NCBI GenBank assembly: GCA_963846365.1
Contig: CAWJVN010000002.1
Coordinates: forward strand, 692,157-756,156
From: an uncultured Chloroflexia bacterium
Lineage (GTDB): Bacteria > Chloroflexota > Dormibacteria > Aeolococcales > Aeolococcaceae
Direction of reading: 5' to 3'
Length of the DNA stretch: 64,000 bases
The position numbers were made by a program, and so were the translations under genes. The notes under the pieces were generated by a model that did no database searches, was not told the DNA's origin, and worked only from the letters and a program-made list of their open reading frames with translations. Of the stretch, positions 7,186-61,649 are shown one piece after another (position 1 is the stretch's first letter; each line of letters begins with the position of its first letter).

Positions 7186-7919
7186 GTGGCCCGACCCCGG
7201 TGGCGGACGTGGCCACGATGGTCCGTCGTCCACCATGGGCCGGTGGCCGGCGTGGTTCTCGTACATGGCCGCGTGGCACGGTCCTGGTGCTGGGAGCTCG
7301 TTGTCCCCGCCCTTGAGGAGCGGGGAATCGTGGTGCGGACCGAGCTGCATCGTGGCAGCCTACCCGCCGATACCGCCGCCGTCCAGGCGGGGTCGACGCG
7401 ATCGCCGGCGACGGCCCGGTGGTCGTCTGTGGCCATTCTTATGGCAGCGCGGTCATCACCGGCCTCGACCGCAAACACGTCTCGCACCTGGTCTACCTTT
7501 GCGCCTTCATGCTCGACGAGGGCGAGACCTCGCTCGACGAGCTCACCGACGCCCCGCCGACGGCCCTCGCGGACGCCATGGTCCTCAGCGACGACAACAG
7601 CGTCTTCACCATCGACCCCGAGGGGGCGCGCCGGGCCTTCTACGCCGACTGCTCGGACGATCAGGTCGCCCGCAGTATCGCGCGTCTGCGGCCGCAGGCC
7701 GTCCTCCCCGCCGGAGACTTGCCGGAGCGCATCGCCTGGCGTCACATCCCCACGACCTATGTCATCTGCGAGGCCGACGAGGCATTGCATCTCGACGCCC
7801 AGCGGGAGATGTCGGGGCGCGCCACACGCTCGGTCTCGTGGCCGACCAGTCACTCGCCCTTCCTCTCTCGTCCTGAGCTCGTCGTCGACCTGCTGGGAGA
7901 GCTCGCCTCGCCACGCTGA
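7186..7919 (+). CDS. Alpha/beta hydrolase, apparent +1 frame disruption near 7385
   Basis: N-terminal part VVLVHG...SWCWELVVPALEERGIVVRT...LPADTAAVQA is in frame 1; the continuation DAIAGDGPVVVCGHSYGSAVITGL (GxSxG nucleophile elbow) and the C-terminal half are in frame 0. Paralog of 55582-56281. Confidence 0.55.
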
Positions 7920-8215
7920 GCGCCTTCCACAGAGACCACCCTGGCGCACGCGACGGTACCGCGGTCCACCTTGTGCTGAGGGATGATGACGAAAGCCACA
8001 GGCGCGTTTTGCGGCCGTCGGCGTCGAAGGTCTGGGCGAGGGAGGAGCTCACCCCCTGCCGGACCCCGGCGGCGCCCTCGCGCCGCTTGGCCTCATCGAG
8101 GAAGTTCAGGGTGCCCAGGACATCGTCGGCACCTCACCGGCCCAGTTCGAGTTGCCCTTCGCCGCCGCGGCGACCGCACCTTCGGGGTCGGTGCGGTCGA
8201 GGTCAGTCGGACCTG

Positions 8216-57813: not shown

Positions 57814-60800
57814 TCAAAGACCGAGACGGTCAAGGCGCTGAAGCAGGCTGACCTTCTGCGGGTGCTGTGCACGCAGCTGCCGGACACGCTGATCGAACGC
57901 ATCGGAGCGCCCTTTTCGCACGCCAACCGCCTGTAGATCTTTGAGTAGCCGCACGGCTTCCTCATACTGAGCGGGCTTTCTTTGCTCAATGAGGGTGTGC
58001 ACCTGCTGCCACGTCGGCTCCTCTCGAAGCGCTAGGGCCTTCAGACGCTTGTCGTAGGCGACCGCCGCCTCACGCTCCCGGCGTGCTCGCTCCTGTGCCT
58101 TCCGCTCCGCGGCGAGCCGCTCCCGGTCTTTACGACGGGCATCCGCTGCCGTGAGCAGCTCAGCCACGGTACGCGCCCTGTCGGCGGCCACGGTAGGTAT
58201 GTTTGAGTACCGTCGTAGAAGCTGCAGCAGCTCAGCTCGGACATATGCACCGTCACCACTAATCGTCCTCAGCAACAGCGCGCTTTTTACGGCCATTGGG
58301 AGCGCCTCGATGCACCGCGCCGTCTCGCCGTCCGAGTCGGAATCTACCGTCGAACTCTGGGCTGGTGGCAGCTGCTACGGCGAGAAGGTCGTCGTCAATA
58401 CGCAGGAATTCGACAAGGCTTCGGAGCGAAGGCGTCAGCCGGGTCAAGTTCGCAGGTACTGGCGGCTCTGGGTCGTGGTCCGCGAGCTCGCCTGCCTGCA
58501 CGCAGAGTAACCAGCCGAGGTAGAGGGCGCGGAGGTCGCCGGCTGCCATTTCGGCCCGTACCGGGATGATCGATGTCAACCAGCCGTGGCCGTCCTCGTC
58601 GAAGTCTCCGTCCTCGATTTGGGAACTCAGGTCCAAGACCACATGCTCGCTCGTGACCCACGCGCTCGCAGCGTCGGCACCGCAGTACGTGGCGGCCGTC
58701 TCGATGTCGAGCAGCCCCTTGGGCAGTCTGATCATCAGCTGGCTGTGTTCCAGTTTGTGAGGTAGAGAAAGGCATCGAAGTACCTCTCCATCAACTTGCG
58801 CGGATCGCCGCGGAAGTTGCCCCACTCGTAGGTGTTGACGAAGCTCGTGGTCGTGATGCGGGCGCGAGATGAGAGCGCGCGAAGCTCGGCGAGCTGGCGC
58901 TCGTCCAGCGGACGGTCCACCGCAGGAACTCGTAGTACTGGTACTCACTCACGCAGTTCAGTCCACCAAGCGCAGGACTGCGCGTCCGGATGAGCGTGTG
59001 TTCTTTATCTGCGCGCGCTTGCCCAAGAGGAGCTCGCGGTGCATGCCGGAGCGCGCTGTTGCCGCCTCGAGAACCTCGGACGCGAGCGCGACCCTGCCGG
59101 CTTCGACCGCGGCGTTGGCCATCGCGGTGACCGGCATCCACCAGTCGCTTCCGAGCCGATGCGCCGCCACCACGAAGCGGTCGAACGACCGCGTCGCGAC
59201 GTAGAGCCAGGCGGCCAGCTGCAGTGCCGCGTCCGCCTGGTGGCTGAGATGCACTGTGCGGTGCTCGTCGGCGAGTTGCAGGAGGATGTCCTCGACCTCG
59301 GCGACGTCACCCCTCTTCGTCGTTCGGAAAGGTGCGGTTTCCCGCTTGTGGAGCAGACCCCAATCCTCCCAGACGCAGAGCTCGCAGAGGTCGGCGTGGC
59401 GATCCGCCCGCGCGATGCCGGTCGCCTCCCACGGGAGCGCCGCGTAGGATGCCAGCGCGTTGCCGATCGTACTGGCTACGGCCCCGTCAGAGTCGCGTAG
59501 CCCGGCCTCGAAGGCCTCGATGCCCGCGGTGACCAGTGCGCGCCAGAGCGCCAGCCGCGCCGCGGGAGCGTTGGCTCGCTTGCCGTCCATCTCGAGAGCG
59601 GCTTCCTCCAGCTCGATTGCGATGCCGAAGCTGCCGCGCCGGCCGGCGCGCTCGCCCTCGATGAGGTCAGCGAAGAAATCGCAGTCGGTCCGCGGTGAGA
59701 TTGGAAAGAAGTCCCAATGACCGCGCAATGCTCGGGTCTGGAGCCGCCGGCGGGGCGTGTCGCGCATGGGCGGTGTGACCTCGCGGCTGCCGAGGGACTG
59801 TGCCAAAACCTTGCGCCGGGCCTTTGCGAGGATGGGCCTGGGGTCCTCCACGCCGGCCACGATGTGACGCGCGTCGATCCCCGCAGCGGCGAGGCGGCGC
59901 TCAAGGTCGTGGAGGTGGCTGTCCTTGGCCTCCCAGTCGCGGCCGCGCCAGAGGTCGCGCCCCTGGTCGAGGATGGCGCCTTCCAACGCCTGCCAGTCAC
60001 CCCCGAAGTCGGTCACGCACAGGAGGCAGAACCAGAGGTCCCAGTGCGACCACTCGGTGGACCCGAAGCGCATCCACGGCTCGGGTCCGAAAATCGGCGA
60101 TCGCCTCACCGTCAACAGCCGAAGCCCGAGCCGGGCCCCACCGCGCGTCCGTGCAGCGCCTCGAGGGCGATGGCCCTCCCGGCATCGGTGAGCCCGTAGC
60201 GGCGGTCGCGCCAGTCGCCGCCCGTCGACAGGAGGCCGAGCGCCCGGCAGCGGTTGAGGGTGGCGTGCATCACCCATGAGATCGACCGCGCATCGGGCGG
60301 TGCGTCGGTTCGCCTGTCCCAGAACCCCGCCTCAGCGACGGCCGGGGCGATCGAGGCGGTGATCTCGCTGGGGGCCAGAGTATCGGCGGAGATCAGGAGC
60401 GCGAGGGCGAGCTCTCCGCAGGCGGCGGTGAACGGATCATCGTCGATCAGGGCCGCGGCGACCGCCCGCGCGAGAGCGGGCGGGTCTGCCAGGAGCCTGG
60501 CCCCTTTCGGCGTGAGCCTGAGCATGCCGCCAGAGCGGCTGGCCAGCCGCAGACGCTGGACGATGTGGCGGACCTCCGCGAGGTCGCCGACGTCATGCTC
60601 GCCGCGTGGCGGTGTCTCGTCGTGCCAGCCGAAGCGCGCCGCCGCCGACCGCACGAAGGCGCAATTGAGGTGGCCCGTCTGGGTGAGTGCCAGGCCCCCA
60701 GCGAGCTGCTCCAGCAGCCAGCGCAGTGGCGCGGGCGCCTCCCCAAGCACCGCGGGACTCATCTCGGGTGGCCGTCGGATCCGATCGATGACGGGAGACA

Positions 60801-61649
60801 GGATGCCGCCTCGGGCCTCGCTACGTGGGCCACCAAGCCAGGTCTTGATGCGCTCCGCAACGATCACCTCGGCGAGAGTCGGGCCGTCCTGGTCGAGCCG
60901 TGGCGAGGTCAGATGGACGCGGAGCACCTCCTGCTGGCGCCTCCGCCAGCCGTGGCGGCCAGGGACGAGATCGCCCGCCGCCACGGCGCGCTCGAGAGCG
61001 TCGGCGCAGGATGAGCGAGCCCGCGCCTCGGCCCAGCCCATCATCAACCGCCACCCGAGCTCGGGCAGGTCGGGGGGCTCGTCCCCGATCCGACATTGGC
61101 GCGTCGGTATGCGGTCAGCCCCGCCCGCTCACCGGCCGCATTGGCGCGCAGGACCCCCTGAGTGACGGGAGAGCGGCAGATCGCCGCATAGAGCGAGAGG
61201 CCGAGGTCGTCGAGAACCCGCGCGAGGGCGGCCGCAATGTACAGGCTGTGGTCGGGATCCTCCGCGACGCTGAGGGGCAGCTGGTACCACAGGTTGTCCT
61301 GCAGCAGCTCGCGGGTGAGGCGACCCGGCCCCTCGTCGTCGAGCAGCCAGTCGAGGGCTGCCTCCACTTCGGCGGCGGCCGTCGGATCATCGCTCTGAAG
61401 TGTCGCGATGGCTTCGGCAACGGAGTGGCGCGGCTCACCCAACACGGTGGCATATGGTGCACGGAGCACCACACCTTGGGGAAGGGTCGGGCCAACGCCA
61501 GCCTGTCGCGCCGGAGCCGAACGCAACCCGCAGAACCGATCGAGGGGCACATCACAGGCGTCAACGTGGCCTCGGGGGCAGCGCGCTACCAGGGCACGGC
61601 GCGAGACCACCGGGCGTGGCGCCGGCACCACACGAGAGAGCGGCGTCAA
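57814..61649 (-). other. Uncharacterised Ala/Leu/Arg-rich helical protein locus: four or five consecutive minus-strand ORFs (61044-61649, 60112-61047, 58958-60277, 58259-58948, 57814-58296) overlapping by 4-38 nt; possibly a single ~1270-codon gene
   Basis: No enzymatic or NTPase motif recognised; pieces abut or overlap in adjacent frames, like the other frame-disrupted genes here. Confidence 0.3.

Follow-up and report, generated by a model that had tools for sequence, protein, structure and literature searches.

Are the many genes that appear split along a 64-kb stretch of contig CAWJVN010000002.1 (hereafter the window, the whole stretch analysed) decaying in their host, or were they broken during assembly? 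A preliminary description of this DNA had listed at least a dozen genes that need one change of frame to give a full-length product, and had left long-read error and genuine pseudogenisation as the two candidate causes. All the listed genes are indeed broken, as judged from homology or from the repair of a domain, an ECF sigma factor and a lipoprotein (lipoprotein 2) being the weaker cases, and three further breaks were found at ~48405, ~48938 and ~23885. Most of the breaks are probably consensus indel errors of an unpolished or lightly polished long-read assembly, most likely a Nanopore-only one; the window would then come from such an assembly, and its reads would not back the indels. Of the two causes first proposed, error thus fits most sites and pseudogenisation a minority, in the second of two GMC oxidoreductases (GMC#2) and in a radical-SAM gene. 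Taken together, the breaks are probably a data-quality warning rather than biology: ordinary as biology, they matter for annotation.

The window contains ~53 genes, as obtained by codon-position scoring and a six-frame Viterbi parse, and its G+C content is 69% throughout. In 16 of these genes, 24 single-step frame breaks were found, which corresponds to about 0.45–0.5 per kb of coding DNA (Table 1). A break was counted where a homologue or paralogue aligned in two frames with contiguous residue numbers, or where a domain became complete only after a one-base repair. Junctions were placed from homology, as placement by G+C at third codon positions (GC3) overshot by ~50 nt; the sites listed previously were all found, with positions shifted by up to 70 nt. 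Twelve breaks are insertions, ten are deletions, and two are assigned to neither class. All but one (23/24) involve a single nucleotide, the exception being a 2-nt deletion in the second of two group II introns. The typical change is in the length of a short run, from one base to two, two to one, three to four or five to four, and no common sequence motif or slippery heptamer was found around the break sites. Several breaks had been described as lying at G/C homopolymers. This is true of 5 or 6 of the 19 events outside the introns, which fall in G/C runs of at least 4 bases (4.1% of all bases), two events being within the 33 G/C runs of at least 6; the remainder consists largely of 1-to-2 or 2-to-1 changes.

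No in-frame nonsense codon was found inside any homology-supported gene of the window. Indels and substitutions arise in bacterial mutation-accumulation lines in a ratio of roughly 1:6–1:12, and with the codon usage of the window 2.5–3.3% of the possible substitutions create a stop. Under neutral decay, 24 indels should therefore be accompanied by ~4–10 nonsense codons and by several multi-base indels. This expectation bears directly on genuine recent pseudogenisation, according to which this would be an accessory, rearrangement-prone region under relaxed selection, where slippage has killed about a third of the genes and the dead genes gain further hits. The lack of nonsense codons, the predominance of single-base events and the absence of a deletion bias all argue against it. 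So does the sequence downstream of the breaks, which loses neither identity nor coding signal: identity to homologues and GC3 coding periodicity are equal in all frame segments, multi-hit genes included, a test that is insensitive to very recent inactivation. One-base repair restores full-length products, with Pfam and NCBIfam domains spanning the junctions.

Detailed insights were obtained by comparing individual genes with their intact counterparts. The first GMC oxidoreductase (GMC#1) belongs to a conserved operon (12.6–22.2 kb) of TPP-enzyme, GMC, SDR, GH15 and enolase-superfamily genes. Its GMC_oxred_N and GMC_oxred_C domains lie in different frames; six orthologues align over the break, the window having one extra base within GAGTTCGAGGGG, and the junction is supported by 43 related loci. 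Identity is similar on the two sides of the break (75% before, 77% after), and the repaired protein is 82–85% identical to homologues of 550–570 residues, with a coverage of 97–100%. Since its seven operon neighbours are intact and its family is 80% conserved out to Mycobacterium, this gene is a poor candidate for pseudogenisation. The LAL/LuxR-type regulator (AAA_16 to GerE) has its Pfam domains spread over three frames. Residues 1–313, 315–713 and 729–942 of its 943-residue homologue P0391 align to frames +2, +3 and +1 at 83, 83 and 82% identity, and the repaired regulator is 82% identical to this homologue. Aligned at the DNA level to its intact orthologue on contig L081 (2.83 kb, 83% identity), the gene shows no indels other than two extra bases in the window and a 24-nt in-frame gap at the C-terminus.

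The locus at 57814–61649, suspected earlier of being disrupted, carries four breaks. Three are in a hypothetical gene of the YQYYEF family, where translated searches (tblastn) place homologue residues 1–10, 11–70, 72–200 and 201–378 in four frame segments, each at 79–87% identity; the repaired product (377 residues) is 80% identical to 378-residue homologues over 100% of their length. The fourth splits another hypothetical gene (the 61-kb gene), whose homologues are mostly 440–455 residues long: their residues ~120–440 match the downstream open reading frame (ORF), and residues ~8–127 the upstream one, in another frame. A paralogue plays the same role for the second of two cupredoxin genes, since copy 1 (37176–37600) reads through, and two frames of copy 2, which has one T fewer, are needed to align with it; after repair, the Cupredoxin_1 match (profile 19–104) spans the junction.

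Comparison with orthologous loci, which had been proposed as a check, thus found the orthologues intact. It also bears on programmed recoding, in which the frame would be restored by the ribosome (frameshifting) or during transcription (slippage). The G7 run at 39174–39180, in a cyclase regulator, would permit slippage. However, the orthologues or homologues of GMC#1, the LAL regulator, the YQYYEF gene, the 61-kb gene and the cupredoxin are unshifted at the same sites, and the breaks, which share neither heptamer nor motif, shift the frame in either direction (+1 or −1), with as many as three in one gene. Recoding is therefore extremely improbable.

Do such breaks occur in relatives of this bacterium, and in which of them? 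A control set of 80 loci around the orthologous TPP-enzyme gene was analysed by all-against-all translated comparison, breaks being counted if backed by at least 10 other loci. There were 16 breaks in 481 kb from 32 long-read loci of metagenome-assembled genomes (MAGs) of the Microflora Danica (MFD) project, versus none in 462 kb from 47 short-read or isolate loci (Fisher P = 0.001). The 16 breaks are concentrated in 7 Nanopore-only loci (L078, L047, L063, L033, L080, L021 and L049), with 1–4 breaks each within about 20 kb and densities of up to about 0.25 per kb. Ten insertions and six deletions, in non-homopolymer contexts, make up a mix like that of the window. In L078, a Dormibacterota relative, the breaks fall at 13292, 15452 and 16133; the genes that they hit have no break in the window. 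Among related loci the signature thus follows sequencing technology and not lineage, which again speaks against pseudogenisation. The MFD MAGs are Nanopore-only Flye assemblies with one round of Medaka (PMC12313526), and Nanopore bins below about 40x coverage keep frameshifting indels (PMC9262707).

The repeats in the window point to the same type of data. Two group II introns, 97.4% identical over 1.9 kb, and a 650-bp duplicate at 90% identity are bridged, which short-read metagenome assemblies rarely achieve, and the window thus very likely comes from a long-read assembly. The closest relatives of the conserved operon are Candidatus Dormibacterota MAGs (TPP enzyme 75–77% identical at the amino-acid level, gene order common to both), and the window probably derives from an uncultured soil bacterium of this group. 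To our knowledge this phylum is known only from MAGs, which, taken with the repeats, also suggests a long-read MAG.

Consensus error is preferred for most breaks because the 1-nt indels go in both directions, nonsense codons are lacking, conservation is equal across the breaks, the orthologues are intact, and the control signature is confined to Nanopore-only MAGs. The process would be simple. At modest coverage, the consensus caller would miscount short runs of identical bases by +1 or −1; such errors would be blind to gene content, with about one per 2–2.5 kb, and each would split an intact, well-conserved gene into two ORFs. Apart from this error layer, the region holds a few genuine remnants: GMC#2, the radical-SAM gene and possibly the cyclase regulator.

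Several observations weigh against attributing the breaks to error. They are mildly clustered, with three genes carrying three breaks each and ~33 kb of genes carrying none (P = 0.02–0.05). In multinomial simulations, hits per gene are mildly over-dispersed relative to a uniform scatter by length: the chi-square statistic gives P = 0.12, the unhit length P = 0.016 and the number of genes with at least three hits P = 0.037 (0.02–0.05 for statistics other than chi-square); the mildness of this deviation would in turn fit error. The enrichment in G/C runs would also be expected from replication slippage. With 5 breaks over 2.9 kb, the introns are hit at about four times the window average. The internal deletion of GMC#2 is real decay in the region, and the radical-SAM remnant is real gene loss. 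Finally, the best hits to the window genes tested are 80–85% identical, with none above 85% in the protein and genome collections searched, and exact look-ups of two window proteins returned no record, so that we infer the sequencing platform of the window.

GMC#2 has the N-terminus MTGDRECDVMVVGAGSAGC, whose ATG forms an ATGA overlap with the stop codon of the PpoB2-domain gene upstream; the extra G comes after this N-terminus. The in-frame stop at 24368–70 was considered as a nonsense mutation of GMC#2 and rejected, as it is the stop of the PpoB2-domain gene and thus a gene boundary. Further downstream, window positions 23798–23884 stand for about 116–155 homologue residues, an internal loss of about 90–140 codons. 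After repair, GMC_oxred_N matches positions 2–132 of its 218-position profile only (133–218 are gone), and the C domain is complete. Alignments to PDB entries skip about 150–230 reference residues, and the GMC homologue beside the LAL orthologue on L081, where gene order differs, aligns at residues 22–164 and 281–493 only. Amino-acid identity to this nearest homologue is 48–57%, versus 82% for the neighbouring LAL regulator and its own homologue. GMC#2 is a genuine pseudogene, whatever the sequencing errors. The B12-type radical-SAM gene keeps only its C-terminal third: the BchE (profile 317–434 of 497) and HpnJ (330–433 of 472) matches both extend over the junction, the N-terminal two thirds are absent, and the remnant lies directly downstream of the hypothetical gene at 48167–48698. 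It is likewise a genuine, 5′-truncated remnant.

The cyclase regulator is less clear-cut. After repair of its first break its Guanylate_cyc match (profile 7–143) spans the junction, and the aligned segments of homologues are contiguous across 40765–40800; the second break, in the C7 (G7) run, was placed by coding potential, not by a homologue. Its C-terminus is about 200–300 residues short of homologues of 1076–1232 residues and adjoins the duplicated cupin–cupredoxin module, and the gene may be 3′-truncated. In its second zinc-ribbon motif, CPGSG stands in place of the expected CPxCG.

Pseudogenisation thus draws support from GMC#2, the radical-SAM remnant and the short cyclase regulator, from the clustering, the multi-hit genes and the G/C-run enrichment, and from a setting with two group II introns, a duplicated cupin–cupredoxin module and att-like repeats of a tRNA end. 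However, the mixed spectrum of lesions expected of decay (nonsense codons, multi-base indels, truncations, deletions) is not seen in the set as a whole; only GMC#2 and the radical-SAM remnant show lesions of this sort. As a general explanation it is unlikely, but it carries some weight. Some single-base indels may well be real, especially in the genes with genuine loss or a high density of breaks (GMC#2, radical-SAM, cyclase regulator, introns). That the indels are real throughout, a free-living soil Dormibacterota losing about a third of the genes of this accessory region in a very recent burst of single-base slippage, as might happen in a mismatch-repair-deficient mutator or following a sharp population bottleneck, is rather improbable; such a burst would explain why there are as yet no nonsense codons and no secondary decay. 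Were this true, it would mean unusually fast gene loss for a free-living bacterium.

The introns call for separate consideration. Both reverse transcriptases were said to be disrupted, and this holds, with three indels in copy 1 and two in copy 2. The BLAST alignment of the copies contains 41 substitutions, and their ORFs differ at 19 synonymous and 17 non-synonymous codons. An open frame of 481 codons with a complete RVT_1 domain is obtained only if the two copies are combined into a hybrid, with the state that preserves the frame chosen at each differing indel; each copy therefore carries private indels. The density of breaks in these two copies, and the break in cupredoxin copy 2, would fit a merging of reads from different strains or repeat copies during polishing, as opposed to low coverage in itself, and so would the contrast between the accessory regions, which carry more breaks, and the conserved operon, with 1 event in 9.6 kb. 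Most breaks are nevertheless in single-copy genes, and such cross-mapping is in any case a sub-case of the artefact explanation; as the general cause, it has only a slim chance.

Table 1. Genes and introns of the window that carry frame breaks, with the position and kind of each break.
Feature	Position	Strand	Frame breaks and remarks
Group II intron copy 1	347..2280	-	reverse transcriptase ORF with three private indels: ~1643, ~1183 (extra G), ~863 (extra C); Rfam RF02005 at 2013-2236
Alpha/beta hydrolase 1	7225..7919	+	1-nt deletion ~7392 (G5 to G4)
GMC oxidoreductase 1 (GMC#1)	17465..19050	-	1-nt insertion at 18035-18047; in conserved operon
GMC oxidoreductase 2 (GMC#2)	23111..24371	-	extra G at 24315-24317; second frame change ~23885; internal deletion
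LAL/LuxR-type regulator (AAA_16 ... GerE)	26030..28887	+	1-nt insertions at 26971 and 28216
Group II intron copy 2	28977..30904	-	reverse transcriptase ORF with extra G ~29694 and 2-nt deletion ~29607; RF02005 at 30639-30859
Zinc-ribbon / class III cyclase / AAA_16 regulator	38671..41260	-	1-nt deletion 40765-40800; frame change in C7 (G7) run 39174-39180
Cupredoxin copy 2	42159..42555	-	1-nt deletion (TT to T) at 42352
ECF sigma factor	47363..48102	+	probable 1-nt deletion ~47518; weaker support
Hypothetical gene	48167..48698	+	probable 1-nt insertion (C3 to C4) ~48405; coding-potential frame switch and frame reading
B12-type radical-SAM gene, C-terminal third	48754..49387	+	1-nt insertion ~48938; DUF4070
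Nitrile hydratase accessory protein	49617..49894	-	1-nt deletion ~49757
Lipoprotein 2	54774..55314	+	probable 1-nt insertion (G3 to G4) ~54830; weaker support
Alpha/beta hydrolase 2	55582..56281	-	1-nt insertion 56127-56138
YQYYEF-family hypothetical gene	57814..58952	-	58923 (deletion), 58742-58743 (deletion), 58354 (insertion)
Hypothetical gene (61-kb gene)	60112..61472	-	1-nt deletion 61062-61086 beside C6 run; split into ORFs 61044-61649 and 60112-61047

In the smaller genes, the breaks were mostly recognized from domains that became complete on repair. The two alpha/beta hydrolases illustrate this: in the first, the N-terminal 'VLVHG' and the 'GHSYG' motif lie in separate frames, and the Abhydrolase_6 match extends on repair from profile positions 43–216 (62.2 bits) to 1–216 of 217 (77.7 bits); in the second, it extends from 35–216 (72.4 bits) to 1–216 (97.2 bits). 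The repaired nitrile hydratase accessory protein matches TIGR03889 over positions 1–69 of 74 (81.5 bits), and its NHase_beta_N score rises from 17.3 to 39.4 bits. The ECF sigma factor has no in-frame start for 110 codons; its region 2 is encoded ahead of the first in-frame start and its N-terminus is in another frame, the TIGR02937 match covering profile 33–165 only, with no homology over the junction. In lipoprotein 2, one frame encodes the signal peptide and lipobox (LAAGAIGC) and another the rest of the ORF, as read from the frames themselves and not from homologues. The hypothetical gene at 48167–48698 had no match in Pfam or NCBIfam.

Other candidate breaks were examined and set aside. 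The 166-nt overlap at 60112–60277 was rejected as a frameshift, as the downstream gene most likely starts at ATG 60073. Neighbouring genes in the same frame were rejected as hidden nonsense mutations, being separate complete genes: OsmC and peptidase S15 (stop 51102–51104), TetR and YjbR, and two small operon genes at 19157–19897 and 19901–20374. In the region 9945–10800 (minus strand), a gene of uncertain N-terminus ends at 9945, and the coding-potential parse changes frame at ~10435; this switch may be a further frame break.

Some features of the window are of interest in their own right. An exact 41-nt direct repeat, AAAACCCGGTGTCGTCGGTTCGATCCTGACCCTCGGCACCA, occurs at 41999–42039 and 44350–44390 (plus strand) and resembles the T-arm, 3′ acceptor stem and CCA of a tRNA (att-like). 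The two copies had been described as differing by one A; the position in question is the edge of the exact repeat and gives no evidence of an indel. No intact tRNA was detected at these repeats with ARAGORN or Rfam. They flank a 2.3-kb segment with cupredoxin copy 2 and a cupin-domain gene, and may have been left by an integrative element or by the cupin–cupredoxin duplication event. The cupin–cupredoxin module itself is present twice, at 37060–38650 and 42043–43660. A search of a plasmid database returned distant group II intron matches only. A 42-nt unit (14 codons) is repeated in tandem, with 5.6 copies and an 86% match, at 22608–22858 (plus strand), inside the ORF 22533–22907. A PIN-domain toxin gene (61661–62068, minus strand) overlaps a small upstream ORF (62065–62355) by 4 nt; together (61661–62355), the two would form a typical VapBC-like toxin–antitoxin pair, which appears intact.

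The consequences for annotation are considerable. Annotated as it stands, the window would have about 30% of its genes called as split ORFs or pseudogenes, including two large regulators, the ECF sigma factor, a conserved GMC oxidoreductase and both intron reverse transcriptases. For the genome, the counts of pseudogenes and of 'orphan' short proteins would be inflated, and coding density would also be affected. Because comparable breaks are present in several public MAGs from related soil lineages that were sequenced with Nanopore only, comparative studies of such genomes are best done with frameshift-aware gene calling or after short-read polishing.

How does the window compare with known systems? 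Decaying genomes, such as those of Mycobacterium leprae and of recently host-restricted pathogens, accumulate nonsense codons, deletions of all sizes and insertion-sequence (IS) insertions, and the sequence beyond each lesion erodes. The window resembles pseudogene-rich genomes in the many disrupted genes and in a few structural lesions (the GMC#2 deletion and the radical-SAM remnant); it differs from them in that 23 of the 24 breaks are single-base, nonsense codons are lacking and the downstream sequence is not eroded. In programmed frameshifting, as in prfB, dnaX and the IS3 and IS1 transposases, the sites are conserved among orthologues and have defined slippery motifs. The likeness here is that a gene needs one frame change for its full-length product; the orthologues of the window genes are unshifted, in contrast, and no motif is shared.

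The third comparison is with Nanopore-only assemblies made with Flye and Medaka, as examined with the IDEEL test (PMC9262707) and as gathered in the MFD long-read catalogue (PMC12313526). Published accounts stress long homopolymers, whereas the breaks of the window are mostly in runs of 1–4 bases, with insertions as common as deletions. What the window has in common with these assemblies is 1-nt indels that split conserved full-length genes, a few breaks per 10 kb, and long contigs that span repeats.

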